DNA from: Sedimenticola sp.
GTDB lineage: Bacteria; Pseudomonadota; Gammaproteobacteria; Chromatiales; Chromatiaceae
Assembly (NCBI GenBank): GCA_026994195.1
Contig: JALWRH010000030.1
Location: 20-64,019, forward strand
Direction of reading: 5' to 3'
Length of the DNA: 64,000 nt
The notes below the pieces were generated by a model. That model saw nothing but the letters and a program-made list of their open reading frames with translations, was not told the origin of the DNA and made no database searches. A program made the translations under genes and the position numbers. How positions within the stretch are numbered: the stretch's first letter is position 1; each line of letters opens with the position of its first letter. This document shows positions 13,194-64,000 of this stretch, one piece after another.

Positions 13194-13263
13194 TGTAGGT
13201 CGGGCTTCAGCCCGACAACGGCGGCCACTACGGAGCAATGTCGGACTGAAGTCCGACCTACGG
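13194..13263. repeat. REP-like double-hairpin intergenic element, copy 1
   Basis: TGTAGGTCGGGCTTCAGCCCGACA - 23-nt spacer - TGTCGGACTGAAGTCCGACCTACGG. Near-identical arms recur at 50078-50147 and 63492-63564. Confidence 0.9.
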
Positions 13264-38728: not shown

Positions 38729-39300
38729 AAAGGGGAAGACGGTCTGTAAGCCGGGTTCTGTCAGCAATCGAAATTGCCGTGATAGTCATTCATCTGGGAC
38801 GCCCGTCACCGGACGCCTCAAGCAACCTACCCGGAAGCAACTGCGGGCAGCAGCATAAGCTTCCCTATTTGGTCTTGCTCCAGCCGGGGTTTACCCTGCC
38901 ACTGCCGTTACCGGCAGCGCGGTGCGCTCTTACCGCACCTTTTCACCCTTACCTGCCAAGGGAAGCTCTGATTGATTCTGTACGAAGCAGATTATGCCTG
39001 AAATGTTCGAGAACAAGGCGGAGTTCGCAGCCAATAGCACACGCTATTGGCAAGAACTTCAAAGCTTGCCGCTCCCAGCTCACGCCCCTCACCTACATCC
39101 CTGTAGGCGACGCAGTTATCGGGCATTTCAGGTATGAGATGCGAGTTCACGAATCAATCAGAGCTTCCCAAGACAGGCGGTATATTTTCTGTGGCACTTT
39201 CCGTAGGCTCGCGCCTCCCAGGCGTTACCTGGCGACTTGCCCTGTGGAGCCCGGACTTTCCTCTGTTGCATGGCAACAGCGACTACCTGACCGTCTTCCC
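38729..39300 (-). ncRNA. rnpB: RNase P RNA, bacterial type A, with greatly expanded P12
   Basis: The minus strand carries GAGGAAAGTCCGGGCTCCACAGGGCA (P4 5' strand, plus 39241-39263), GGTAAGGGTGAAAAGGTGCGGTAAGAGCGCACC, CAAATAGGG, AGATGAATGACT and ACAGAACCCGGCTTA (P4 3' strand, plus 38747-38761). P1 pairs GGGAAGACGGTC (39300-39289) with GACCGTCTTCCC (38744-38733). Position between rsmI and mraZ matches Pseudomonas. Confidence 0.92.
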
Positions 39301-46010: not shown

Positions 46011-47435
46011 ATGCCCGGCGCACGCCATCTGCTCTCTACAGCAATCTTGCTGTTCTGGTCATGGCCGGTGCATGCCAATGAAACACCCCTGGATTTGACC
46101 GGCCACTGGGCCGGCTACCTGTCCCTGGGCGTCTTTTTCCTCGCCTATCTGTTCGTCATGGCGGAAGAGTTTACCCACCTGCGCAAATCCAAGCCCGTGA
46201 TGCTGGCCGCAGGCATCATCTGGGCCAGTATTGCCTTGGTGTACCAGATCCATGGCTACACCACGGAAGTCGAGCATGCCGTGCGCCACAACCTGCTGGA
46301 ATATGCAGAACTGATGCTGTTTCTGCTGGTGGCCATGACCTACATAAACGCCATGGACGAACGCCTGGTGTTCGAAAAGCTGCGCATATGGCTGGTGCGC
46401 AAGGGATTGGGATTCAGGGCGCTGTTCTGGGTAACGGGTCTTCTGGCCTTTTTCATCTCGCCCATCGCGGACAATCTGACCACCGCCCTGCTCATGTGCG
46501 CCGTGGTGCTCGCCGTGGGTGGCGACAACAGCAGGTTCATCCTTCTGGCCTGTATCAACATCGTGGTTGCTGCCAACGCCGGAGGCGCATTCAGCCCTTT
46601 CGGTGACATCACCACTCTCATGGTATGGCAGAAAGAGATCACAACACCCCAGGGAATGATTGATTTCTGGTCTTTCTTCGCCCTGTTCTTCCCTTCCCTG
46701 GTCAACTGGCTGGTGCCGGCATTCATCATGGGGCTGGCGGTGCCCAACGAGCACCCGGAGCCCCTCTCGGAGGCCGGCGTCACCAAGCGGGGGGCGAAAC
46801 GCATCGTCATACTGTTCCTCCTCACCATCGCCACAGCAGTGGTGTTCCACAACTTCCTGAGACTGCCGCCGGTGGTGGGCATGCTCACCGGCCTGGCTTA
46901 TCTGCAATTCTTCGGCTATTACCTGCGCAAAACCCGCACCAAAGACGAAACCCCCGAAGCGGCAGCCCATGCCGGACATATCGGCGACCCGGTGGCATTC
47001 GATATATTCACCAGTGTCGCCAGAGCCGAATGGGACACCCTGTTTTTTTTCTACGGCGTGGTGTTGTGCGTCGGCGGGTTGGGATTCATCGGCTATCTCA
47101 CCCTGGCCTCGGATATCATGTACAACCAGTGGGGCGCTACGGTAGCCAACATCGCCGTAGGGGTGATGTCCGCCATCGTGGACAACATTCCGGTGATGTT
47201 CGCCGTACTGACCATGCTGCCGGAGATGTCCAACGGGCAGTGGCTGCTGGTGACCCTCACCGCTGGCGTGGGCGGCTCCCTGCTTTCCATCGGCTCCGCC
47301 GCCGGCGTCGCCCTGATGGGACAGGCCCGGGGCAAATACACCTTCTTCGGTCACCTGAAATGGGCCCCCATCATCGCCCTGGGCTATGGATCCAGCATCC
47401 TTACCCACATCTGGCTGAACCAGCACTTGTTCTGA
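46011..47435 (+). CDS. nhaD: Na+/H+ antiporter NhaD family
   Basis: 474 aa, polytopic. Segments FFISPIADNLTTALLMCAVV and SAIVDNIPVMFAVL are typical of NhaD (ArsB/NhaD superfamily). Confidence 0.8.
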   Translation: MPGARHLLSTAILLFWSWPVHANETPLDLTGHWAGYLSLGVFFLAYLFVMAEEFTHLRKSKPVMLAAGIIWASIALVYQIHGYTTEVEHAVRHNLLEYAELMLFLLVAMTYINAMDERLVFEKLRIWLVRKGLGFRALFWVTGLLAFFISPIADNLTTALLMCAVVLAVGGDNSRFILLACINIVVAANAGGAFSPFGDITTLMVWQKEITTPQGMIDFWSFFALFFPSLVNWLVPAFIMGLAVPNEHPEPLSEAGVTKRGAKRIVILFLLTIATAVVFHNFLRLPPVVGMLTGLAYLQFFGYYLRKTRTKDETPEAAAHAGHIGDPVAFDIFTSVARAEWDTLFFFYGVVLCVGGLGFIGYLTLASDIMYNQWGATVANIAVGVMSAIVDNIPVMFAVLTMLPEMSNGQWLLVTLTAGVGGSLLSIGSAAGVALMGQARGKYTFFGHLKWAPIIALGYGSSILTHIWLNQHLF

Positions 47436-47598
47436 GGCCTACCCCCGTTCGAGCCCATTGTTTCCGCTCAATTCAGAAGCCTGTAGGGTTGTGATATAGT
47501 TTGAGGCGATCAGGGTTCAATCGTTAAGGGCGTTGTGGGGCAACAGCGCATTTAACCGTTCAACTATACTGTATTTCTATCTATTTCCGGAGGATCAT

Positions 47599-48471
47599 AT
47601 GTCCAAGAAACATCCAGTCGTTGTTGTAACCGGCTCATCCGGTGCTGGTACCACCACCGTCAAACGCGCTTTCGAGCACATATTCACCCGTGAAGGCATC
47701 AAGGCAGCTATCGTGGAGGGCGACAGCTTTCACCGCTACGACCGTGCAGAGATGAAGGTGAAAATGGCGGAAGAACATCTGAGCCATTTTGGCCCGGAAG
47801 CCAACCGTTTCGACAAGATCGAAGAACTTTTCAAAGTCTATGGTGAAACAGGACGTGGTGAAAAGCGTTACTACCTGCACAGCCAGGAAGAAGCCGACGA
47901 GCACAATGCACGACTGGGCTGCGACAAGAAACCCGGAGAGTTCACTCCCTGGGAAGAGATCCCCGAAGGCACAGACCTGCTGTTCTACGAAGGTCTGCAC
48001 GGCATGGTAGTTACCGATGAGAACAACGTGGCCGGCCAGGTCGATCTGGGTATCGGCGTGGTGCCGGTAGTCAACCTCGAGTGGATCCAGAAAATCCACC
48101 GCGACGCCAAAGAGCGCGGCTATTCTGCTGAAGCAACAGTGGAAACCATCATGCGCCGCATGCCGGACTACATCAACCACATCACGCCCCAGTTCTCCCG
48201 CACGGATATCAACTTCCAGCGAGTGGCCACGGTGGATACCTCCAACCCTTTCATCGCCCGGGACATTCCCACCCCGGATGAAAGTTTCGTGGTGATTCGT
48301 TTCGCCGACCCGGAAAAGTTCGATACCGACTTTCCCTACCTGCTGAACATGATTCCCGACAGCTTCATGTCCCGGCGCAATACCATTGTGGTGCCCGGTG
48401 GCAAAATGGGCTTCGCCATGGAAATCATCCTCGGCCCCATCATCGACAAGATGATGCATGAGCGCGGCTGA
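47599..48471 (+). CDS. prk: phosphoribulokinase
   Basis: MSKKHPVVVVTGSSGAGTTTVKRAFEHIF P-loop N-terminus and bacterial type PRK length (290 aa). ATG 47599 is preceded by GGAGGA. The track ORF starts upstream at 47533. Confidence 0.93.
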   Translation: MSKKHPVVVVTGSSGAGTTTVKRAFEHIFTREGIKAAIVEGDSFHRYDRAEMKVKMAEEHLSHFGPEANRFDKIEELFKVYGETGRGEKRYYLHSQEEADEHNARLGCDKKPGEFTPWEEIPEGTDLLFYEGLHGMVVTDENNVAGQVDLGIGVVPVVNLEWIQKIHRDAKERGYSAEATVETIMRRMPDYINHITPQFSRTDINFQRVATVDTSNPFIARDIPTPDESFVVIRFADPEKFDTDFPYLLNMIPDSFMSRRNTIVVPGGKMGFAMEIILGPIIDKMMHERG

Positions 48472-48493
48472 TTTTCCTCAACCACGCGGTTCT

Positions 48494-48530
48494 GGCCATC
48501 TTGCCTTCTGTACGGGCAAGATGGCCTTTT
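48494..48530 (+). terminator. rho-independent terminator of prk
   Basis: A 12-bp perfect stem pairs GGCCATCTTGCC (48494-48505) with GGCAAGATGGCC (48515-48526). The loop is 9 nt and is followed by TTTT. Confidence 0.8.
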
Positions 48531-48580
48531 GCCAATTGGCCTGTTATCGACCCCGAGGTGCTTTCCCATGTTGTCCATTT

Positions 48581-48654
48581 AGCCGGCGACCAAATATATT
48601 GCCCTCTGCCGCCCTGTTTGAAGCACTGAGGGCGATATATTTGGTCGCCGGCTT
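48581..48654. repeat. long inverted repeat (26-bp arms, 1 mismatch, 22-nt loop)
   Basis: AGCCGGCGACCAAATATATTGCCCTC (48581-48606) pairs with GAGGGCGATATATTTGGTCGCCGGCT (48629-48654). It lies between the prk terminator and the next transporter gene. Confidence 0.8.
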
Positions 48655-48685
48655 AATAAAAGCCTGCTGTAGCCGTTAGGTAGGA

Positions 48686-50065
48686 ATGTATTCAGAGATA
48701 CTTGGTGAAACTATGGAAGCAATTACCGAAACCCTGACCTGGAACAGCAGCATGGCCGTCTCCGGCCTCATATTGGCCGTTACCTTCATCGGCATATTCA
48801 CCGAAGGGGTACACGGTTTCCATCGCACCAAGTTCGCCATGGGCGGCGCAGCCATGATGGTATTGGCTGGACAGCTGATGGGATTCTATGACCCCCAGAT
48901 GGCCCTGGATGCCATTGACTGGAACGTGGTGCTCCTCCTGGGCGCCATGATGACCATCGTAGCCATCATGATCCCCACGGGCGGTTTCCAGGTGCTGGCC
49001 TACCGCATTGCGGATTTCAGCAAGGGACGCCAGTTTCTACTCATGGCCCTGCTGGGTACAGCGGTAACGGTATTTTCCCTGCTCCTGGACAACGTCACCA
49101 CCGTGGTCATCTTCGGGCCACTTATCGTTCTCATTGCCAAGGCCCTGAAAACCTCGCCGGTTCCCTACCTGCTGGCCGCGGCCCTGTTATCCGACACGGG
49201 GGGCGTGGCCACTCTGGTGGGGGATCCGCCCAACCTGATGATCGGCTCTGCAGCGAACATTGATTTCAACACCTTCCTCATCAAGATGGGCGGTTTGGTG
49301 TTGGTAGCCTGGATCGCCATCCTGATTGCACTGAAATTCCTGTTCCACAAGGAGCTCAGCGGTGAGACCGCGCACCCCAGTTTCGAAGACCGGGAAAAAC
49401 TGATCGATCCCCACACCTGGCGCATGTCCCTGCTGGTCTTGATCGTCATGGTGGTGTTTTTCATTTTCCATCATCATCTTCATTGGGAACCTTGGGTGGT
49501 TGCGGTACTGGGCCTGTCCATTCTGCTGCTGATCTCAAAGAATGTGGACATGGACGACACCCTGGAAGACGTGGAGCTGAGCCTGCTGATGTTTTTCATG
49601 TCCCTGTTCGTTCTGGTGGGCGGCGTGGAACACAGTCATTTCCTCAAGTACATTGGACAGTTCATCCGTCCCTTCGTGGAATCCGATCTGCTCCTCGCGT
49701 CCATCCTGCTCATGTGGGCCGCCGCCATTCTTTCCGCCATGATCGACAATATTCCCTTCACTGCCGCCATGATCCCCATCATCATGGGTATGGAACAGCA
49801 GGGCATCAACGTCTCTCCCCTGTGGTGGTCACTAGCGGTCGGCGTGGGCATGGGCGGCAATGGCACGCATCTGGGCTCCACTGCCAACGTGTTCATCGTC
49901 ACGCTTTCTGAACGTATTGCCCGGGAAACCGGCAATGAGGATTGGCGTATCACGCCGGGGCTGTGGTTCCGCAAAGGCACACCTGCCATGCTGCTCACCC
50001 TGGTGACCTCTTCGCTCCTGATGTGGCTGTTCTTTGATTTCTTCGACCAGCCCATTCCCCATTGA
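48686..50065 (+). CDS. ArsB/NhaD-superfamily anion/ion permease
   Basis: 459 aa, polytopic. LLLDNVTTVVIFGPL and SAMIDNIPFTAAMIPII repeats are typical of the superfamily. An alternative start is ATG 48713 (MEAITE). Confidence 0.75.
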   Translation: MYSEILGETMEAITETLTWNSSMAVSGLILAVTFIGIFTEGVHGFHRTKFAMGGAAMMVLAGQLMGFYDPQMALDAIDWNVVLLLGAMMTIVAIMIPTGGFQVLAYRIADFSKGRQFLLMALLGTAVTVFSLLLDNVTTVVIFGPLIVLIAKALKTSPVPYLLAAALLSDTGGVATLVGDPPNLMIGSAANIDFNTFLIKMGGLVLVAWIAILIALKFLFHKELSGETAHPSFEDREKLIDPHTWRMSLLVLIVMVVFFIFHHHLHWEPWVVAVLGLSILLLISKNVDMDDTLEDVELSLLMFFMSLFVLVGGVEHSHFLKYIGQFIRPFVESDLLLASILLMWAAAILSAMIDNIPFTAAMIPIIMGMEQQGINVSPLWWSLAVGVGMGGNGTHLGSTANVFIVTLSERIARETGNEDWRITPGLWFRKGTPAMLLTLVTSSLLMWLFFDFFDQPIPH

Positions 50066-50077
50066 TTATTGCGGATA

Positions 50078-50147
50078 TGTAGGTCGGGCTTCAGCCCGAC
50101 AATGGCGGTCACAAACGGAGCGTTGTCGGACTGAAGTCCGACCTACG
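50078..50147. repeat. REP-like double-hairpin intergenic element, copy 2
   Basis: TGTAGGTCGGGCTTCAGCCCGACA - spacer - TGTCGGACTGAAGTCCGACCTACG. It lies between the convergent permease and dxs genes. Confidence 0.9.
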
Positions 50148-55948: not shown

Positions 55949-56467
55949 TCAATCAGCCGCATTGAAAAGATTCAACAACCCCATCATTAATTCCACCGGC
56001 GCCGGGGGGCAGCCAGGAATGTACAGATCCACGGGCAACACGGCTTCCACGCCACCACGGGTGGCATAGTTGTCCCGGCCAAACAGGCCACCGTCACAGG
56101 CGCAGTCGCCACAGGCTATCACCCATTTGGGCGCGGGCGTGGCTTCCCAGGTGCGCAACAGCGCTGTTTCCATGTGCCGGCTCACGGGGCCGGTGACCAG
56201 CAAGATATCCGCGTGGCGCGGTGAGGCGACGAAGTGGATGCCAAAACGTTCCACGTCATAGTAAGGGTTGTTCAGGGCGTGAATCTCCAGCTCGCAGGCG
56301 TTGCAGGAACCGGCATCCACTTCACGGATGGCAAGGCTGCCGTTGAAACGTTTGTCCACCAGGCGTTTGACCTCTATGCCCAGCGCTTCCAGCGCTGCAT
56401 CGCTGCTGGTGGGTGCTTTTTCCGTGAGCACCCCTGTCTTCAGGGTTTTGCGCAGTATTCTATACAT
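55949..56467 (-). CDS. NuoB/HycG-like small subunit of a group-4-hydrogenase-related complex (EhrS-like)
   Basis: GSCNACELE, VIACGDCACDGG and YIPGCPP motifs, so the four Cys of the proximal [4Fe-4S] cluster are retained. ATG 56467 forms an ATGA overlap with the large-subunit stop. Confidence 0.88.
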   Translation of the reverse strand: MYRILRKTLKTGVLTEKAPTSSDAALEALGIEVKRLVDKRFNGSLAIREVDAGSCNACELEIHALNNPYYDVERFGIHFVASPRHADILLVTGPVSRHMETALLRTWEATPAPKWVIACGDCACDGGLFGRDNYATRGGVEAVLPVDLYIPGCPPAPVELMMGLLNLFNAAD

Positions 56468-58056
56468 CAGAGATCCTGCCCTGAGTAGGAGCCGTTGACC
56501 GACTTGTTGCACACGGGGAAGTCCGGGACAATGTTGCCCATGACGATACGCTCCAGGGCCGGCCAGGTATGCCAGCTGGGGTCACGGGGAAAGAAGCGCG
56601 CCACCTTGCCCCCGGCATCCAGGCGCACATAGGTGATGATCTCGCCCCGCCAGCTTTCGACGAAACCCAGACCTTCACAAGGTGCCTGGGGTGGCTGCCA
56701 CCGGCATTGCAGCTCTCCCGGCTCCAGAGCATCCAGCAGTTCATCCATCCATTCCAGACTGCGGCGTATCTCTTCCATGCGCAGCTGTACCCGCGCCATG
56801 ACATCACCATCCGCCAGGCAGACTGTTTTCATGGGCTGCCGGTCATAGGGCGGATAAGGGTTGCTCGCGCGCAGGTCGAAAGCCTGACCACTGGCCTTGC
56901 CCACGTAACCCGTGCAGCCCAGGGCCCGGGCCGTGGCCGGACGCAGCACGCCGGTATTGAGCAGCCGGTCTTCCAGGGAAGGCTGATCAAGTAGGATATC
57001 GAACAGCTCGTTGGTTTCTTCCATGAGCCGTTGATGATCCTGCTTCAGGCTTTCCCGGGCCCGGGTATCCAGGTCCACGGCCACACCCCCTGGCAGCAGC
57101 AAATCCATGAGCAGGCGATGTCCGAACAGTTCCTGGTTGCGGCGCAGCCAGTTCTCGCGCAGGCGCGAGCACTGGTAGAGCGCAAAGGCGAATCCCACGT
57201 CATTGCAGATGGCGCCAATGTCCCCCAGGTGGTTGGCGACGCGCTCCCGCTCGCATAACAGGCCGCGCAGCTGCTGGGCGCGTCTGTCCACCCGGCAGCC
57301 GACCGCGCGTTCCAGGGACTGGCAGGCAGCCCAGGCATGGGCCACGGTGCTGTCGCCCGATACCCGCCCCGCCAGACGCACCAGCGCTGCAGCATCCCGG
57401 CCCTGGGCGGCTTTCTCTATGCCCTTGTGTACATAGCCCAGACGCTGTTCCAGACTGAGAATCTCCTCCCCCACCGCATGGAAGCGAAAATGCCCCGGCT
57501 CGATGATGCCGGCATGCACCGGCCCCACGGGAATCTCACACACGCCTTCGCCCTTTATATGCTGAAAAGGATAGCCACCATCTGCCGGCGCGGGCTGTCC
57601 GCCCTGGTCTGCCGGAAGGTGAAAATCCGCCCGCAGGGGATAGGATGATTCCGGCCAGGCCTGATGGCGGGTCCAGCGGCGTTCATCCGGGGAATCACTG
57701 AACACCAGCCCCAGCATATCCTGGGCATGCCGCTCGGGACGGTCGGCAATGGGATAGGAAGGCACATGGGAGGGCAGCACTGGCGTGTCCGCGTCAACCG
57801 CCGTCTGCAGCACCACATAGTCCCCGGCATGTTCCAGACAGGCATATACGCGGATATGGTCTTCATGCTCATCGCCCCACAGGCCGCACCAGCGGTATTC
57901 CAGCAGCGAAGCCTGTCGCGCCGCCCGGCCCCAGTCCTCGGCATCGATCTCCAGCACGTGCGCGGGCGCCAGCCGTTGCGCGGAGCCCCGGCGCACCAGC
58001 ACATGCTCATCTTCGAGTTGGGCCAGGTATTCTGAAAGCCAGTCGAAGCGACCCAT
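56467..58056 (-). CDS. fused NuoC-NuoD / HycE-like large subunit lacking Ni-Fe ligand cysteines (EhrL-like)
   Basis: PVGPVHAGIIEPGHFRF and LGYVHKGIEK core motifs. The L1 position reads RVSGDSTVAH and the C-terminus reads FPVCNKSVNGSYSGQDL. There is no CxxC in the 529 aa. Confidence 0.85.
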   Translation of the reverse strand: MGRFDWLSEYLAQLEDEHVLVRRGSAQRLAPAHVLEIDAEDWGRAARQASLLEYRWCGLWGDEHEDHIRVYACLEHAGDYVVLQTAVDADTPVLPSHVPSYPIADRPERHAQDMLGLVFSDSPDERRWTRHQAWPESSYPLRADFHLPADQGGQPAPADGGYPFQHIKGEGVCEIPVGPVHAGIIEPGHFRFHAVGEEILSLEQRLGYVHKGIEKAAQGRDAAALVRLAGRVSGDSTVAHAWAACQSLERAVGCRVDRRAQQLRGLLCERERVANHLGDIGAICNDVGFAFALYQCSRLRENWLRRNQELFGHRLLMDLLLPGGVAVDLDTRARESLKQDHQRLMEETNELFDILLDQPSLEDRLLNTGVLRPATARALGCTGYVGKASGQAFDLRASNPYPPYDRQPMKTVCLADGDVMARVQLRMEEIRRSLEWMDELLDALEPGELQCRWQPPQAPCEGLGFVESWRGEIITYVRLDAGGKVARFFPRDPSWHTWPALERIVMGNIVPDFPVCNKSVNGSYSGQDL

Positions 58057-59525
58057 TACAAGCCCTCCCCTGCAATCAGCAGCGTTACCTCATTGAGCCA
58101 GCCATAGAGCACGGCGGGTATGGCCAGCCCCAGCCACAGCACGGCCAAAAGATGCACCAGCACCGGCAGCATGTTGGCGGATACCGCCGACTGCCCTTCG
58201 GGAGCTGCGCCATACACCATGGGCTGCACGTTGCGGAACAGCCCGGCAAAGGCAATGCCCAGGCCACTCAACAGCAGCACCGTCAGCCAGGGCCAGCTCT
58301 GGATGGTGGCGCTGAGAATCAGAAACTCGCTGGTGAAGACTCCAAAAGGAGGAAAGCCGGCAATGGCCGCCACGCCGATGAGCAGGCCCCAGCCCACGCC
58401 GGGCTGGGTGCGGATGAGTCCACGGATGTGCTCGATACGCTGGGTGCCGGCAATATGGCTGGCATGGCCCACGGTGACAAAGATGGCGGATTTGGTGAGG
58501 GAATGCACGAGCATGTGCAGCAGGCCGGCAAAGGTGGCCAGGGGCCCTCCCATGCCAAACGCAAAGGTCATCAACCCCATGTGTTCGATGGACGAATAGC
58601 TGAACATGCGCTTGATGTCCCGCTGGCGCTGCAGGGACAGCACCGCCACCATGAAGGACAGCAGACCGAATCCCATCATGAGCATCCCGGCCATGGCGGG
58701 CATGTCCGTGCTGTGCAGCGAACCATCCACCAGCATCTTGAAACGCACCACAGCGTACAAAGCCACGTTGAGCAGCAAGCCGGAAAGCACCGCCGACACG
58801 GGGGTGGGACCTTCGGAATGGGCATCCGGCAACCAAAAATGCATAGGCACCAGCCCCACCTTGGTGCCATAACCCACCAGCAGAAAAACGAAGGCAATGC
58901 TCATCACCCGGGGATCCAGCTCTCCGGCATGCTGGTAGAGTACCCGCCAGCTCAGGCCGGCTTCCGCGTCCGGCAATACCTGCTGGGCGGCAAAATACAC
59001 CAGCACCGTGCCAAACAAGGCCAGGGCAATGCCCACGCCACAGAGAATGAAATATTTCCAGGCAGCCTCGATGGATTCCGGCGTGCGGTACAGGCTCACC
59101 AGCAGCACCGTCGCCAGGGTCGCGCCTTCCACCGCCACCCAGAGGATGCCCAGGTTGTCACTGGCCAGAGCCAGCAGCATGGTGAACAGAAACATCTGGA
59201 ACATGGCATGGTAGAGGCGCATGCGCTGGCGTGTCAGGCGCCCCTGCTCGCAGACATCCTTCATGTAGGGTCGGGAAAATATGGCCGTGGTCAGACCGAC
59301 GAAGGTCGTGAGCATGATCAGGTACACATTGAAGGCATCGATCTGGAATCCCGCCACGGCCAGGCTGCCGCCAGCATGAACCAGCACCGCCAGCCACAGG
59401 GAGGCCAGAAACTCCAGGGCGCAGAAAAACACATTCAGCCAGCCGCTCACCACCAGGCTGGAGGTCAGGGCCAACAGCATGCTGCCGGCCACGGGCAGCA
59501 GCAGGACCAGCCAGAATGCGATCAT
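58056..59525 (-). CDS. NuoM/NuoN/HyfF-like antiporter-type membrane subunit
   Basis: 489 aa, polytopic. WLPDAHSEGPTPVSAVLSG motif of the Mrp/complex I antiporter-like family. Confidence 0.85.
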   Translation of the reverse strand: MIAFWLVLLLPVAGSMLLALTSSLVVSGWLNVFFCALEFLASLWLAVLVHAGGSLAVAGFQIDAFNVYLIMLTTFVGLTTAIFSRPYMKDVCEQGRLTRQRMRLYHAMFQMFLFTMLLALASDNLGILWVAVEGATLATVLLVSLYRTPESIEAAWKYFILCGVGIALALFGTVLVYFAAQQVLPDAEAGLSWRVLYQHAGELDPRVMSIAFVFLLVGYGTKVGLVPMHFWLPDAHSEGPTPVSAVLSGLLLNVALYAVVRFKMLVDGSLHSTDMPAMAGMLMMGFGLLSFMVAVLSLQRQRDIKRMFSYSSIEHMGLMTFAFGMGGPLATFAGLLHMLVHSLTKSAIFVTVGHASHIAGTQRIEHIRGLIRTQPGVGWGLLIGVAAIAGFPPFGVFTSEFLILSATIQSWPWLTVLLLSGLGIAFAGLFRNVQPMVYGAAPEGQSAVSANMLPVLVHLLAVLWLGLAIPAVLYGWLNEVTLLIAGEGL

Positions 59526-60205
59526 GAATGCTCCTCCCGTTCACTGAGCCGGTTCAAACGATCAACGTCCAGGGACTCGATGCTTTCGCTGATATGGAAG
59601 AAAAAGATGCCGAACAGCACCGCCGCCACCAATACGTCGAAGGCGACACCCAGTTCCACCACCAGGGGCATGCCGCGGGTAGAGGCCACCGCCGCCAGGA
59701 ACAGGCCGTTCTCCATGGACATGAAACCCAGCACCTGGGCAATGACCTGGCGGCGCGATACCATCATCCACAAGCCCAGCAACACCACGGAAAGACTGAT
59801 GGCCACGATGTTGCGCGTGTCGCCCAGCCCCAGCTTCTCTATGGGCAGTGATACCCAGTAGGAAAAAATCACCAGGGCGGCGCCGGTGAGCAGCAACACG
59901 GCCGGATGGGCAATATTCTCCACCAGACGCTCCATGTTCAACTGACGCACCAGGCGATGCAGCATCCAGGGAATCAGCAGGCTCTTCAGCCCCAGGGTGA
60001 GGGCGGCAGACAGGTACAGGTGGGACGTATGGCTGGAATAGGCCACCAGAGCGGTGACCAGAGCCACCCCTGCCCCCTGCCAGGCAAAACTGTGGATGGC
60101 CGATGTCAGGCGGGTCTGGGCCAGCAAGGCGAAGGAGGTGAACAGCACCAGGGCCGCCAGCACCGCGATGCCCTGTTGCAGAAGGGGCAGATGGCTCATG
60201 TTCAT
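59522..60205 (-). CDS. HyfE-like small membrane subunit
   Basis: About 227 aa starting MNMSHLPLLQ (ATG 60205, ATGA overlap with the upstream stop). GFMSMENGLFLAAV ... PLVVELGVAFDVL resembles hydrogenase-4 component E. The track ORF has a 90-codon upstream extension. Confidence 0.75.
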   Translation of the reverse strand: MNMSHLPLLQQGIAVLAALVLFTSFALLAQTRLTSAIHSFAWQGAGVALVTALVAYSSHTSHLYLSAALTLGLKSLLIPWMLHRLVRQLNMERLVENIAHPAVLLLTGAALVIFSYWVSLPIEKLGLGDTRNIVAISLSVVLLGLWMMVSRRQVIAQVLGFMSMENGLFLAAVASTRGMPLVVELGVAFDVLVAAVLFGIFFFHISESIESLDVDRLNRLSEREEHS

Positions 60206-61167
60206 GTCCCGGTCTCCAGGATGATGTGGGAGAACAGGCCCAGCAGGGTCAGAAGAAAAGCCAGGTTGAGATACTGGGGCACGCGGAACAGGCGCATCTT
60301 GGCCAGCACGGTTTCCATCACCGCCACCACCACGCCCAGCAGCAGCAGCTTCACGGTCACCGCCAGCAGTCCCATGAGCAGGGCGCCCGCCGTGTCCCCC
60401 GTGGCGATACCCCAGGGAAAGAACAGGTTGACGATGAGCACTCCGTAAAGCATAAGTTTGAGCTGAGCCGCCCATTCCATGAGGGCCAGATGGCGTCCGG
60501 AATATTCCAGAATCATGGCCTCGTGGATCATGGTCAGCTCCAGATGGGTGGCCGGATTGTCCACGGGAATACGCCCGGTTTCCGCCACCGCCACCAGCAT
60601 CAGCCCCAACAGGGCAAACAGGAAGGACGGCCGCAGTATCAACCCGTTGGCCAGGTTGAAATCCACCACGGAAGAAAGATTGGTGCTGTGGGCGCTCATG
60701 GCCAGGGTGAACACCGCCATAAGCATGGCCGGTTCCGCCAGGGCGGAAACCATCATTTCCCGGGATGAGCCCATGCCGCCGAAACTGCTGCCCACATCCA
60801 TTCCCGCCAGGGCGAGGAAGAAACGTCCCAGCGCCAGCAGCCCCACCAATACGATCATGTCCGCCGCCATGGCGGAAGGCAGGTTAGTGGCCAGCAAAGG
60901 CACCAGGGACACGGCCACCAGGGCACTGGCAAAAACCACATAGGGCGCCGCCCGGAACACCAGGGATGCGGTATGCGCCACCAGGGCTTCCTTGCCGAAC
61001 AGCTTGTACAGATCCTGCAGGGGCTGGATGATGCGCGCGCCCCGGCGGTTCTGCAGGCGCGCTTTCACAAAGCGGATCCAGCCCGCCAGCAGGGGCGCGC
61101 CCAGCAGGAACAGGATGCCCTGCAGAAGCACGATGAGCCAGCCGGAAAGACTCAGGAAATCAGCCAT
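60202..61167 (-). CDS. NuoH/HycD/HyfC-like membrane subunit
   Basis: LQNRRGARIIQPLQDLYKLFGKE and GMDVGSSFGGMGSSREMMVSALAEP motifs. ATG 61167 (MADFLSL). Confidence 0.85.
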   Translation of the reverse strand: MADFLSLSGWLIVLLQGILFLLGAPLLAGWIRFVKARLQNRRGARIIQPLQDLYKLFGKEALVAHTASLVFRAAPYVVFASALVAVSLVPLLATNLPSAMAADMIVLVGLLALGRFFLALAGMDVGSSFGGMGSSREMMVSALAEPAMLMAVFTLAMSAHSTNLSSVVDFNLANGLILRPSFLFALLGLMLVAVAETGRIPVDNPATHLELTMIHEAMILEYSGRHLALMEWAAQLKLMLYGVLIVNLFFPWGIATGDTAGALLMGLLAVTVKLLLLGVVVAVMETVLAKMRLFRVPQYLNLAFLLTLLGLFSHIILETGT

Positions 61168-63158
61168 AACAGCACCACCAGGGTTCCCAGGGTCCAGCCC
61201 AGATAGTTTCTCAAATGCCCGGTCTGCAGCCTTCCCGCCACGCGGCCGGCCTGGAGAACAGAGCGTATTACCGGCGCGTACAACCAGCCCCACAGGCGGT
61301 CACCCACCTGCAGGCTGTGACGCAACTGGCCGCTCTCATCATGTTTCACGCTTTCATCGATGGCAAACAACATGCCGAACACCCGGCGTATGGGCTGGGA
61401 GAATGCCGTGGCGGTGTACTGCATGCGGGCGTTCAGGGGAGAGAAGCCACAATCCCAGGCATCGCAACGGCGTACCTGGCGCACACCGCCCCGGCGCAAT
61501 ATCAGCGCCGCCAGCCACCAGGCCGCCAGCAGCCCCAACAGCACCAGGCCTGCCGAATAACTGGCGGTCTGCCCCCCCAGGGGCGTCAGCCACAGCCAGC
61601 CATGGGCCATGGCCTTGTCCAGACCCGTATGCAGCAACTGCCGGGGGATGGCATCGATAAGATGGATCATGGTAGTGGGCAGAACCCCCAGCAGCAGACA
61701 CAACAGGGCCAGAAAGCCCTGCCCCAGACGCATGCCCATATCAACCTCTCGCGCCTTGCGCGCCTGCTTGCTGCGCGCCTGACCGAGGAAACTCACCCCA
61801 TACACCTTGACGAAACAGGCCGCGGCCAGGGCGCCGGTCAGAGCGAGTATGGCGGCTGCCACAGGTATCAGGCTGCGCAACACGCCGTTCTCCAGAGACC
61901 AGGCCTGCAGGGCGGTCTGAAATGTCAGCCACTCCGAAACGAAGCCGTTGAACGGCGGCAGCGCCGCAATGGATATGCAGCCCACGAGAAAGAACAGGCC
62001 GGTCCAGGGCATCAGCCTGAGCAGGCCGCCCATGTGTTCCATGTCCCGCTGATGGGAGCTGTGCAGCACCGCGCCGGCGCCCAGGAACAGCAGGCTCTTG
62101 AACAGGGCATGGTTGATGGTATGGTACAGGGCCGCCACCAGTCCCAGGGCCGCCAGCAGGTGATGCCCGGCGCCCTCGAAGACCATGGACAGTCCCAGGC
62201 CGATGAAAATAATGCCGATATTTTCCACGGAATGATAGGCCAGCAGGCGCTTCAAATCGTGCTGCATCAGGGCATAGAGCACCCCCATGAGAGCGGATAT
62301 GCTGCCCACCAGCAGAACCGCCACGCCCCAGCTCCACTGAATACCGCCCAGCAGATCGAAACTGAAGCGGATGAAGCCATAGACCGCCACCTTGAGCATC
62401 ACCCCAGACATGAGGGCGGAGATATGGGAAGGCGCCACGGGATGCGCCTCGGGCAGCCAGGCATGCACCGGCAGCAATCCGGCCTTCATGCCGAAACCGA
62501 GGAAAGCCAGGGCAAAGGCCACCGTGGCCCAAAGACCGCCCACCTGAGCCGAGCGCATGGCATCAAAGGCAAAGCCGTGGCCATTGCCCGCCAGAACCCC
62601 ATAGCCGAGGAGAATACACAGGGCGCCGATCTCCGCCATCATCAAATACAAAAAACCTGCCCGGCGGTTAGCCGCGTTCTCATGCTGAAAGGTCACCAGG
62701 AAATATGAAGAAAGGGACATGAGTTCCCAGGCCACCATGAACAGGAAAGCGTCATCCGCCAGGACCACCAGCTGCATGCCCGCCACAAACAGCCCGGTGA
62801 AACCGCCCAGCACCGCCATGGAACCCCGGCCATGTTCGAACTCACGCAGGTAGCCCGGCGCGTAGAACGCCACCGCCACGCAAACCACGCCGATCAGCAG
62901 CAAAAAGAAACCGGACAACATGTCCAGACGCACATGCCAGGCCAGCCATGGCAGGCCAAAAGGCAGTTCCGCCGTGAAAACAGCGCCGCCGGACAGCAAC
63001 AACTGCATCCCGGCTACGGCCACGAGAAGCCCGGAAAGGCCCAGCAGGGGAATCACCAGCCAGCGGGTCAAAACGGAATAATGGGAACTGAACAGGGCAA
63101 AACCGGCAGAGAGCAACGCCAGTACGACACCAAGCAACGCGAGATTCAGTGCTTCCAT
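61152..63158 (-). CDS. NuoL/HycC/HyfB-like antiporter-type membrane subunit
   Basis: About 668 aa, polytopic. WLPEAHPVAPSHISALMSG motif. ATG 63158 (MEALNL) lies 2 nt after the XRE gene stop; the track start at 63164 is a TTG. Confidence 0.88.
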   Translation of the reverse strand: MEALNLALLGVVLALLSAGFALFSSHYSVLTRWLVIPLLGLSGLLVAVAGMQLLLSGGAVFTAELPFGLPWLAWHVRLDMLSGFFLLLIGVVCVAVAFYAPGYLREFEHGRGSMAVLGGFTGLFVAGMQLVVLADDAFLFMVAWELMSLSSYFLVTFQHENAANRRAGFLYLMMAEIGALCILLGYGVLAGNGHGFAFDAMRSAQVGGLWATVAFALAFLGFGMKAGLLPVHAWLPEAHPVAPSHISALMSGVMLKVAVYGFIRFSFDLLGGIQWSWGVAVLLVGSISALMGVLYALMQHDLKRLLAYHSVENIGIIFIGLGLSMVFEGAGHHLLAALGLVAALYHTINHALFKSLLFLGAGAVLHSSHQRDMEHMGGLLRLMPWTGLFFLVGCISIAALPPFNGFVSEWLTFQTALQAWSLENGVLRSLIPVAAAILALTGALAAACFVKVYGVSFLGQARSKQARKAREVDMGMRLGQGFLALLCLLLGVLPTTMIHLIDAIPRQLLHTGLDKAMAHGWLWLTPLGGQTASYSAGLVLLGLLAAWWLAALILRRGGVRQVRRCDAWDCGFSPLNARMQYTATAFSQPIRRVFGMLFAIDESVKHDESGQLRHSLQVGDRLWGWLYAPVIRSVLQAGRVAGRLQTGHLRNYLGWTLGTLVVLLWLIS

Positions 63159-63160
63159 GC

Positions 63161-63412
63161 TCAACCCTTGCGTTTCAGGCGCACACCGCGCCCACGGGCC
63201 TGGCTGGGCGCATCTTCGGCAATGAGTTCAACCCCCGCCTGTTCCAGAGCCGCCACCACTTTCATCAGGGTATCCACAGTGCCGCCGACCACGCCATCCG
63301 AAGATTCCATGCGCTGAATGGTAGGCAGGGATACCCCCGACAGCTCGGCCAGGGTCTTTCTGTCCATATCCAGCAAAGCGCGCGCTGCGCGTAATTGGGC
63401 GCCACTGATCAT
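63161..63412 (-). CDS. XRE-family helix-turn-helix transcriptional regulator
   Basis: 83 aa. ISGAQLRAARALLDMDRKTLAELSGVSLPTIQRMES is a classic Cro/C1-type HTH. Confidence 0.85.
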   Translation of the reverse strand: MISGAQLRAARALLDMDRKTLAELSGVSLPTIQRMESSDGVVGGTVDTLMKVVAALEQAGVELIAEDAPSQARGRGVRLKRKG

Positions 63413-63440
63413 AAAGAGATAGCAATGAATATCCTATAGG

Positions 63441-63459
63441 TTGATATATTTTATATCAA
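63441..63459. promoter_or_regulatory. perfect palindrome overlapping a candidate promoter of the XRE/complex operon
   Basis: TTGATATA-TTT-TATATCAA lies 28 nt upstream of the XRE ATG. Minus-strand reading gives TTGATA, 17 nt, then TAGGAT. A further TTGATAT half-site is at 63484-63490. Confidence 0.4.
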
Positions 63460-63491
63460 TACAGGACAAAAAAGGAAGCTTGATTGATATT

Positions 63492-63564
63492 TGTAGGTTG
63501 GGCTTCAGCCCGACAACATCAGCCGCGAACAGGAGAGAATGTCGGACTGAAGTCCGACCTACGG
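63492..63564. repeat. REP-like double-hairpin intergenic element, copy 3
   Basis: TGTAGGTTGGGCTTCAGCCCGACA - 26-nt spacer - TGTCGGACTGAAGTCCGACCTACGG, followed by TTTTTT. Confidence 0.9.
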
Positions 63565-63698
63565 TTTTTTCATGCCCCCGCACGCGGGGAAGGGTTTGGG
63601 AGGGGGTGTACGGACAATTATCCCCTCACCCTAACCCTCGGCAACCGCTCCATGCGTTACTCTGGAAATAGCGCGCACCGGTAAAAAACCGGCCTGGA

Positions 63699-64000
63699 TC
63701 AGGGCACGACCTGATCGATCACCAGCTCCACGGGCTTTCCTGAAGCAACATCCACGATGACTTCACCGCTCTGCAGGTCGCCACTGGAAGCCATGGGCTG
63801 ATTGCCCTTGGCAATGCGCGCCGCCAGTTTGAGTTGCGGATAATCCGACAGTTTGCTGCCGGGCTGCAGCATGTTGCTGTCGTCCAGGGTGAGTTCCGCA
63901 GGCAGATCTCCCGCCGTGAGCCGAATCGCCGCCACGGGCATGGGACGTCCGCCCACCTGCTTGGCGAAAATAAACAAACGATCGCCAGGCTTGGCTTTGT
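63699..64000 (-). CDS. ccmI: C-terminal part of a cytochrome c-type biogenesis protein CcmI/CycH-like; 5' end outside the window
   Basis: The frame is open to the window end. The tail FIFAKQVGGRPMPVAAIRLTAGDLPAELTLDDSNML ... AARIAKGNQPMASSGDLQ resembles the CcmI C-terminal domain from memory; no search was run. Confidence 0.5.
   Translation of the reverse strand, partial: KAKPGDRLFIFAKQVGGRPMPVAAIRLTAGDLPAELTLDDSNMLQPGSKLSDYPQLKLAARIAKGNQPMASSGDLQSGEVIVDVASGKPVELVIDQVVP

Follow-up and report, generated by a model that had tools for sequence, protein, structure and literature searches.

An Ehr/Hyq-type operon from Sedimenticola sp. and its predicted hydrogenase-derived membrane complex without Ni-Fe ligand cysteines

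The stretch of DNA analyzed here (the window, 64,000 nucleotides) comprises positions 20 to 64,019 of contig JALWRH010000030.1 from Sedimenticola sp. (assembly GCA_026994195.1). Region 55949-63412 of its minus strand contains seven intact, closely packed open reading frames (ORFs). Six of them encode the subunits of a hydrogenase-derived membrane complex known under the names Ehr and Hyq, and the seventh encodes a small helix-turn-helix (HTH) protein. From the first gene of the operon onwards they are (sizes in amino acids, aa):

63161..63412, minus strand: hyqR-like HTH gene, first operon gene, 83 aa, XRE family, Pfam HTH_3
61152..63158, minus strand: ehrA / hyqB, 668 aa, NuoL/HyfB/HycC-type antiporter-like subunit
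60202..61167, minus strand: ehrB / hyqC, 321 aa, NuoH/HycD-type subunit
59522..60205, minus strand: ehrC / hyqE, 227 aa, HyfE-like membrane subunit with a NuoK-like C-terminal half
58056..59525, minus strand: ehrD / hyqF, 489 aa, NuoM/N/HyfF-type antiporter-like subunit
56467..58056, minus strand: ehrL / hyqG, 529 aa, NuoC-NuoD fusion of hydrogenase-large-subunit descent
55949..56467, minus strand: ehrS / hyqI, 172 aa, NuoB/HycG-type small subunit

Read on the minus strand, ehrA and ehrB overlap by 16 nucleotides (nt; 61152-61167), the ehrB/ehrC and ehrC/ehrD junctions both consist of ATGA (60202-60205 and 59522-59525), and ehrD is joined to ehrL by TAATG (58054-58058). These four junctions agree with an earlier annotation of this stretch (the original prediction), and its layout of six coupled minus-strand genes between 55949 and 63158 was confirmed together with the protein sizes. 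The last junction had been given as an ATGA at 56464-56469 and has to be corrected, since ehrL and ehrS meet in a TGATG at 56465-56469 with a 1-nt overlap. The six genes of the proposed six-gene operon are present, but the HTH gene at 63161-63412 had been overlooked. The TGA stop of this gene lies 3 nt ahead of the ehrA ATG, and because the gene abuts ehrA we count the operon as seven genes. The start of ehrA was placed at the ATG at 63158 (668 aa); an alternative TTG at 63164 would result in 670 aa. Direct reading revealed a purine-rich stretch 8-11 nt upstream of each start, and in identical metagenome scaffolds an independent gene caller assigned the same protein lengths (83, 668, 321, 227, 489, 529 and 172 aa). 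Terminator-like sites inside the operon occur at chance level (9 found, 7.3 expected), and an Rfam search detected no RNA element within or near it. The locus is almost certainly a seven-gene operon of the hyqRBCEFGI / ehrABCDLS type, in which a gene for an XRE-family regulator is followed by the six genes of the Ehr/Hyq complex. A disruption of ehrD in one metagenome scaffold of otherwise identical sequence (L085, 6433-6532), made up of a 55-nt duplication and a join of ~100 nt, is most likely an assembly artefact and not a natural knockout.

The subunit assignments of the original prediction were borne out by Pfam and NCBIfam for all six proteins. EhrS matches Oxidored_q6 above the cutoff (115 bits) and has HycG as its best solved relative (2e-37). 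Its residues C55, C58, C122 and C153 align with the proximal-cluster ligands of HycG, MbhJ and Nqo6, in agreement with the four [4Fe-4S] cysteines noted earlier for the small subunit; the first ligand pair is the hydrogenase-type CxxC and not the tandem cysteines of complex I NuoB. EhrA is recognized by NCBIfam NF005086 "hydrogenase 4 subunit B" (847 bits, above the cutoff) and by Pfam Proton_antipo_M; its best solved relative is HycC (7z0s_C, E=4e-67), and MrpA is matched as well. EhrB, with Pfam NADHdh at 140 bits (above the cutoff), is far closer to HycD (7z0s_D, E=7e-46) than to ND1 of complex I (~6e-10). For EhrC, the NCBIfam HyfE model (86.9 bits) and Pfam Oxidored_q2 (23.3 bits) both stay below their cutoffs, and the sequence search of the PDB gave no match. 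EhrD scores 715 bits with NCBIfam NF005045 "hydrogenase 4 subunit F" (above the cutoff), its best solved relatives being the MBS subunit 6u8y_H, MbhH and MrpD. Overall, E. coli formate hydrogenlyase ranks first among the solved relatives, followed by MBH/MBS and only then by complex I.

In the large subunit EhrL, Complex1_49kDa (126 bits) and Complex1_30kDa (61 bits) are both matched above their cutoffs, and NiFeSe_Hases is also matched. The HMMER alignment with E. coli HycE (PDB 7z0s_E, E=9e-70) places the L1 columns drvCgiCgfah of HycE over grvSgdStvah of EhrL and the L2 columns dpCysCt over ngSysGq, so that S233, S236, S523 and G526 stand in place of the cysteines. The loss of the Ni-Fe ligand motifs, claimed from the raw translation, therefore holds in the alignment; all four columns are replaced, and none of the cysteines reappears. 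EhrL has 13 cysteines in total, yet CxxC and CxxxC occur nowhere in the protein. It terminates two residues past the L2 position, so that a C-terminal extension on which a maturation protease could act is missing. The positions of the quinone-pocket His and Tyr, which the original prediction had singled out for alignment, were also compared: the quinone ligands His38 and Tyr87 of T. thermophilus Nqo4 align with I185 and G234 of EhrL, and the sequence around these columns is hydrogenase-like (GPVHAGIIEPGHFRF), not NuoD-like. Both PDB searches gave HycE as the closest relative of EhrL (~32-35% identity), and MBS is only a distant sequence relative (2e-24). An AlphaFold model of EhrL (predicted template-modelling score, pTM, 0.84) has HycE 7z0s_E as its top fold match (TM 0.84), and the hydrogenase-type coupling loop GPxHAGxIEPGHFRF is kept. 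Judged by these alignments, the Ehr/Hyq complex is neither a Ni-Fe hydrogenase nor a canonical quinone reductase.

The gene content of the window was determined with Pfam scans of ~40 further ORFs, and the surroundings of the operon were compared in 80 related genome loci from sulfur oxidisers, purple sulfur bacteria, methanotrophs, Nitrospinota, Methylomirabilis, Burkholderiales and others. The scans found no NuoI-type ferredoxin subunit, hyp, hycI, formate dehydrogenase, carbon monoxide dehydrogenase (CODH) or nif gene in the window, as had been stated before for NuoI/HycF/EchF-type subunits, hyp/hycI, formate dehydrogenase and CODH. NuoI-type and maturation genes do not recur in the flanks of the 80 loci either; a hyp/hycI and ferredoxin-subunit set beside the operon, which would be expected of an ordinary Hyf/Ech hydrogenase, was thus looked for and found neither here nor as a recurrent feature of related loci. 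Ehr/Hyq is a six-subunit, hydrogenase-derived, complex-I-like membrane assembly without a Ni-Fe site and without a NuoI-type ferredoxin subunit.

A HMMER scan of 1.84 billion representative sequences with EhrL yielded 917 proteins at E<=1e-30, and the full-length proteins among the best 150 were aligned. Clustered at 50% identity, they fall into 81 clusters without any cysteine at the ligand positions, 18 with all four cysteines and 11 intermediates, which mostly have a single cysteine at the first ligand position. The four-cysteine set carries CGxC and ELCYxCxDR motifs and includes two HycE-type sequences; its members are taken, from the literature, as group-4f-like. In a neighbour-joining tree rooted on HycE-type sequences and built without the founding Ehr sequences of Geobacter sulfurreducens and Mycobacterium tuberculosis, the 81 Cys-less sequences and 9 with one Cys group together in a single clade (90 leaves), outside of which the four-Cys sequences fall. 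The window protein, for which a phylogeny had been suggested, belongs to the Cys-less clade, which also takes in members from Nitrospirota, Actinobacteria, Gemmatimonadota, Hydrogenedentota and Binatia. The single clade is consistent with one cysteine loss followed by a large radiation. At the old active site the Cys-less sequences share the signature [SA]-G-D-[ST] / S-Y-[SA]-G, the second part of which also reads N-x-S-Y-[SA]-G. By EhrL position, the residues are:

233: S or A in the Cys-less group, C in the four-Cys relatives
234: G in 95% of the Cys-less group, mostly G in the four-Cys relatives
235: D in 89% of the Cys-less group, V/A/I in the four-Cys relatives
236: S, T, E or N in the Cys-less group, C in the four-Cys relatives
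523: S in 90% of the Cys-less group, C in the four-Cys relatives
524: Y in 89% of the Cys-less group, mostly Y in the four-Cys relatives
526: G in 93% of the Cys-less group, C in the four-Cys relatives

The former active site of the Cys-less group is thus not degenerate. Invariance was judged for every subunit in 55-83 loci, which belong to alpha-, beta- and gammaproteobacteria and to a small number of further phyla. The cluster ligands C55, C58, C122 and C153 of EhrS are invariant (70-72 loci), as are E145, K225, K256, K354 and E409 of EhrA (55-57 loci) and E133, K222, K345 and E400 of EhrD (74-76 loci), a set that covers the Glu of transmembrane helix (TM) 5, the Lys of TM7 and TM11 and the Glu of TM12 in both antiporter-like subunits. 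In EhrB the Glu and Arg residues of the E-channel region are invariant (63-66 loci), in EhrC E165 and E184 (70 loci), and in EhrL the loop GPxHAGxIEPGHFRF in all loci compared. Since cluster ligands, pump residues and coupling loop are all invariant, head and membrane arm are both under purifying selection.

The HTH gene is the only gene conserved beside the six in the 80 loci. It lies directly upstream of ehrA in 27 of the 52 loci that could be assessed and is absent from the other 25. The nearest solved relatives of its product are the HigA antitoxin and a C-protein regulator, and it is 63% identical to an HTH regulator whose gene overlaps hyfB by ATGA on plasmid pTA1_4 of Rhizobium ruizarguesonis; as judged by sequence, the two are orthologous, the Rhizobium protein heading a hyq-type operon. 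The HTH protein is conserved better between gamma- and alphaproteobacteria than any subunit, and a role as structural subunit was therefore considered. This was rejected, as the gene is missing from 25 of the 52 loci and the protein looks like an ordinary DNA binder of the XRE/HigA type. Upstream of the gene lies the following element:

63440..63460, minus strand: candidate operator/promoter, 21-bp block ATTGATATAAAATATATCAAC

The block holds a perfect 19-bp palindrome, TTGATATA-AAA-TATATCAA (in full TTGATATAAAATATATCAA), which overlaps the -35 hexamer of a sigma-70-like site, TTGATA-17-TAGGAT (63459-63431). In comparison with the orthologous intergenic region of Thiolapillus brandeum, the 21-bp block is the only long stretch that is perfectly conserved, and in other loci its position is taken by AT-rich palindromes of another kind (GATGT-N5-ACATC type). 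The HTH protein probably binds this conserved palindrome over the -35 element and autoregulates the operon. A sigma-54/NifA site (TGGCAC-N5-TTGCA, up to 2 mismatches) was not found in 63413-63700, which is a weak test relying on sequence only. Slightly further upstream lies one of three inverted pairs of a 23-mer, GTAGGTCGGACTTCAGTCCGACA, that resembles repetitive extragenic palindromic (REP) elements. The pairs are intergenic (13195-13261, 50079-50146 and 63493-63562), each copy forms a hairpin, and six copies are present in the window where none is expected; the orthologous T. brandeum region does not contain the pair that precedes the operon here.

The name Ehr (Ech- or energy-converting-hydrogenase-related) goes back to Coppi 2005 and Marreiros et al. 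2013, as these are cited in PMC6688271, PMC4758237 and PMC7894505, and the published gene order is ehrABCDLS (PMC6688271). The operon conforms to the published definition and gene order of this family. The assignment to Ehr made in the original prediction is thus supported by a Cys-less group-4-type large subunit, a NuoB-type small subunit, a NuoH-like and two antiporter-like subunits, and the order of the genes. Geobacter Ehr differs in having two EhrA paralogues, and in Mycobacterium tuberculosis an unrelated regulator gene, Rv0081, comes first. Papers from 2014 to 2026 describe the Ehr large subunit as lacking CxxC motifs and report its function as unknown. The statement that Ehr is uncharacterised accordingly agrees with reviews up to 2023-2026 where function is concerned, but it overlooked a deletion study of hyq in Azorhizobium caulinodans. 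The hyqRBCEFGI operon of this organism comprises a regulator gene and six genes "orthologous to hyfB, C, E, F, G, I", and the authors describe Hyq as a core form of complex I with six subunits (Ng et al. 2009, PMC2650096; Sprecher et al. 2012, PMC3357923). Deletion of hyq, which was genetically linked to H2 recycling, slows diazotrophic growth, the promoter is NifA-dependent, and hyq-dependent H2 uptake as well as H2 evolution, the latter under microaerobiosis, were reported in vivo (PMC2650096, PMC3357923). All HyqG proteins are without both CxxC motifs, and the authors call a Ni-Fe site "uncertain, if not unlikely" (PMC2650096, PMC3357923).

Seven genes in the same order, a large subunit without CxxC and a small subunit with CxxC...C...C are shared between Hyq and the operon described here. 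In addition, the alphaproteobacterial protein P0133 (504 aa) has cysteines at 491 and 497, as in the published HyqG numbering, and falls into the same Cys-less clade. The names Hyq and Ehr therefore denote a single family, of which the operon is, by gene order and alignment, a gammaproteobacterial member. R. leguminosarum is named as a hyq carrier (PMC2650096), and the proteins of the window are identical to those of Rhizobium pTA1_4 to the following extent:

HTH protein: 62-63%
EhrD: 58%
EhrS: 57%
EhrB: 55%
EhrA: 46%
EhrL: 44%
EhrC: 38%

The operon differs from Azorhizobium hyq in that no sigma-54/NifA-type promoter lies upstream, that the host is a sulfur-oxidising gammaproteobacterium and not a rhizobial diazotroph, and that it is chromosomal, beside ccm genes. 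Of the three cysteines called "completely conserved" in HyqG, those corresponding to Cys-258 and Cys-491 are present as C284 and C516, and Cys-497 is replaced by G522; the Cys-491 and Cys-258 positions are variable across the wider family.

Among better-known systems, E. coli Hyf and formate hydrogenlyase (FHL-1, PDB 7Z0S) are the closest solved relatives for four subunits and share the coupling loop EPGHFR and the CxxC-type binding of the proximal cluster. They own the four Ni-Fe cysteines, a NuoI-type HycF/HyfH, further Fe-S subunits, formate dehydrogenase and hyp/hycI, none of which is found here. MBS/Mbx of Pyrococcus furiosus (PDB 6U8Y) is likewise a respiratory complex that descends from hydrogenases and has given up H2 production; unlike Ehr, it retains a NuoI-type subunit and more membrane subunits. 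MBS also keeps part of the cysteine set. With complex I (NDH-1) the operon shares equivalents of NuoB, C, D, H, K, L and M and the Lys and Glu residues of the antiporter-like subunits; NuoA, a separate NuoJ, NuoN, NuoI and the N-module are missing, CxxC takes the place of the tandem CC ligand, and Ile and Gly that of the quinone-ligating His38 and Tyr87. The Mrp Na+/H+ antiporter has subunits of the MrpA/MrpD type and a NuoK/MrpC-like element in common with Ehr. It is without NuoB-, NuoD- or NuoH-type subunits and without a Fe-S cluster, and Ehr in turn is without MrpB, E, F and G.

The best protein match is from the vent sulfur oxidiser Thiolapillus brandeum (83% identity), whose complete genome has the same order of genes: ccmEFGH-cycH, the HTH gene, the six ehr genes, DAO, POT, acyltransferase, SpoU, dxs, CitMHS, prk and CitMHS. 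The window accordingly stems from a close relative of T. brandeum. In both genomes prk (47533-48471 in the window) lies 7.5 kb from the operon. When the two ORFs closest to the operon on either side were classified with Pfam in ~42 loci, no redox partner recurred, and the SulP anion permease was the commonest family. Eleven related loci have SulP genes beside or within the ehr operon. Methylocaldum has them between ehrD and ehrL (L066, 8236-9852; L073, 8260-9876), upstream of ehrA they occur at L069, L071, L074 and L078, and the remaining loci are L011, L032, L046, L049 and L060. They belong to two subfamilies, with and without a STAS domain, that are only ~23% identical, which suggests independent recruitment. 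A gene for a CNNM/CorC-type (CBS-domain) cation transporter stands directly upstream of ehrA on the same strand in four loci from Sulfurifustaceae, Muproteobacteria and Acidiferrobacterales:

L049, 280-1761: CNNM/CorC gene
L057, 3252-4529: CNNM/CorC gene
L060, 3440-4735: CNNM/CorC gene
L079, 2808-4130: CNNM/CorC gene

Several further clusters of seemingly conserved neighbours were discarded as shadow ORFs of real genes, for instance cluster 52, which lies over the SulP gene. Copies of the operon are found on plasmids or chromids of Rhizobium, Azospirillum, Burkholderia, Cupriavidus and Methylocalor, and the module is therefore mobile. On plasmid 2 (148 kb) of Candidatus Methylocalor cossyra the operon (L083, 96074-103860) is flanked by several transposase genes and contains an additional ORF of 103 aa between hyfF and the large-subunit gene. 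Upstream of the Rhizobium and Burkholderia plasmid copies lies a divergent gene for a DUF1275/YoaK membrane protein (L081, 2522-3274; L082, 2905-3672); a universal stress protein gene is located nearby in the Rhizobium copy and a gene for a "twin transmembrane helix small protein" in the Burkholderia copy. A solitary full-length homologue of ehrL (58-62% identical), with an asparagine-synthase-like gene on one side and pucC on the other, was found in Chromatium weissei, Chromatium okenii and a metagenome-assembled genome of Thiocystis violascens (L013, 5512-7104; L023, L039, L047), with no other ehr gene in the locus.

The likeliest of several readings of these data, which we put forward tentatively, is that Ehr/Hyq is a redox-coupled or redox-gated ion translocator. 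The membrane arm, made up of EhrA, EhrD, EhrB and EhrC with every canonical Lys and Glu of the proton/sodium path, would carry the ions. The head would consist of EhrL and EhrS, with the single [4Fe-4S] cluster beside a remodelled pocket in which [SA]-G-D-[ST] and S-Y-[SA]-G replace the CxxC motifs. Because there is neither a wire subunit nor a conserved partner gene, we propose that a diffusible cytoplasmic one-electron carrier reduces and oxidises the cluster directly. The redox change at the pocket could then, through the hydrogenase-type loops, reversibly drive or gate the movement of H+ or Na+ through the arm. The ion-translocating module with an unknown coupled reaction that was envisaged in the original prediction is in line with the residue-level conservation. 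Several points weigh against a redox-driven translocator. No donor or acceptor was identified by the analysis, and a vectorial redox pump built on one cluster, with no further redox site, would be odd. The genetics of Azorhizobium point to H2 chemistry that the model leaves unexplained (PMC2650096, PMC3357923). The recurrent neighbours are ion transporters and not redox proteins, which fits a purely ionic function equally well. Furthermore, conservation was measured mostly among proteins that are at least 50% identical, and the EhrL model has a predicted local distance difference test score (pLDDT) below 50 at residues 150-209 and 506-529, that is, at the pocket. Since the score is low exactly there, we make no structural argument on pocket cavities, accessibility or cluster exposure.

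A purely ionic function could be that of an Mrp-like non-redox cation/proton antiporter or ion-homeostasis module, with EhrL-EhrS as a cap or plug and the cluster as a structural element. We regard this as rather unlikely. It would account for the lack of an electron-input subunit and of a conserved redox partner in the 80 loci, for transporters as the commonest neighbours (SulP in 11 loci, twice inside the operon, and CNNM/CorC in 4) and for the matches of EhrA to MrpA and of EhrD to MrpD, and Kruse et al. count ehrABCDLS among the candidates for pH homeostasis (PMC6688271). Mrp antiporters, however, function without any NuoB/NuoD head, equivalents of MrpB/E/F/G are absent here, and the (near-)invariance of the cluster cysteines, the coupling loop and the family-specific D235 implies selection on the head itself. 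The H2 phenotypes would be met by a Hyq-type "endo-hydrogenase", a reversible H2:quinone oxidoreductase with a non-canonical Cys-free site as proposed for Azorhizobium caulinodans. Operon architecture, orthologous regulator and subunits, the deletion phenotype with H2 evolution under microaerobiosis, and the position of P0133-type proteins in the same Cys-less clade all speak for it. It is nevertheless unlikely: all Ni-Fe ligands are lost, hyp/hycI is absent from the window and does not recur beside the operon in related loci, the Nqo4 quinone ligands His38/Tyr87 align with I185/G234, EhrB is far closer to HycD than to NuoH, a sigma-54/NifA-type promoter is missing upstream, and the Azorhizobium authors themselves doubt the Ni-Fe site, the activity having been measured only in vivo. 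The conserved pocket by the cluster might represent a novel type of active or ion-binding site, either a Cys-free centre behind the Hyq H2 phenotypes or a redox-switched cation site that, with one cluster and without an electron wire, switches the complex-I-type arm on and off; we hold this to be decidedly unlikely. If true, it would be a coupling principle undescribed for the complex I superfamily.

Energised uptake of inorganic carbon, by vectorial CO2 hydration or in support of a bicarbonate transporter, might be suspected by analogy with cyanobacterial NDH-1/Cup and with DAB. Chemolithoautotrophs with a Calvin-Benson-Bassham-type cycle and methanotrophs are enriched among the 80 loci, the SulP family found beside or inside the operon in 11 of them includes BicA, and the window and T. 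brandeum both have prk at a distance of 7.5 kb. We nevertheless rank such a role as very improbable, because the operon has no carbonic-anhydrase-like part, nor any CupA-like or DabA-like protein, and the family is common in heterotrophs too (Rhizobium, Burkholderia, Cupriavidus and Azospirillum plasmids). Moreover, the SulP models cannot tell BicA from sulfate or dicarboxylate carriers, and the prk linkage is confined to the Thiolapillus lineage. That the operon is an evolutionary relic, a decaying hydrogenase operon without function, was assumed for Geobacter KN400 by PMC13194489, which treats Ehr as non-functional, and the lost catalytic metal site and electron-input subunit might suggest as much. 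There is next to no probability left for it: the seven ORFs are intact and translationally coupled, synteny is shared with T. brandeum at 83% identity, dozens of functional residues are invariant, the Cys-less clade exceeds its four-Cys sisters in both size and diversity (81 and 18 clusters at 50% identity, respectively), and all subunits were detected in Geobacter proteomes according to the literature. The conservation data thus effectively refute a relic.

The operon is an ordinary, well-preserved member of a known family and not a new kind of system. What is added here is the equivalence with Hyq, the conserved regulator with its candidate operator, the active-site signature, the single origin of the Cys-less clade, the absence of a conserved redox partner and the recurrent transporter neighbours. 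The family is hosted by sulfur oxidisers, methanotrophs, nitrifiers, rhizobia and Burkholderia, and according to the literature it occurs in Geobacter too and, in Mycobacterium tuberculosis, belongs to the dormancy regulon. The role of the stripped-down head bears on the evolution of complex I from hydrogenases and on the minimal machinery that couples a redox event to ion pumping, and with T. brandeum a cultured, fully sequenced and syntenic relative makes the question open to experiment.

The remainder of the window carries a dcw cluster with ftsZ/A/Q, secA, lpxC, pilB/C, coaE, zapD, prk and dxs, a POT transporter gene, a DAO-family oxidoreductase gene and the end of ccmH/cycH. The prk gene is flanked on both sides by genes for permeases of the CitMHS/ArsB superfamily, in the window (46011-50065) as well as in T. 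brandeum (L087, 17787-21590), and two more CitMHS genes were found among the ehr neighbours at other loci. RNase P RNA (RF00010, 331 bits) is encoded on the minus strand at 38731-39298; it is 568 nt long compared with 367 positions in the model and therefore contains insertions of ~200 nt relative to the class A consensus.

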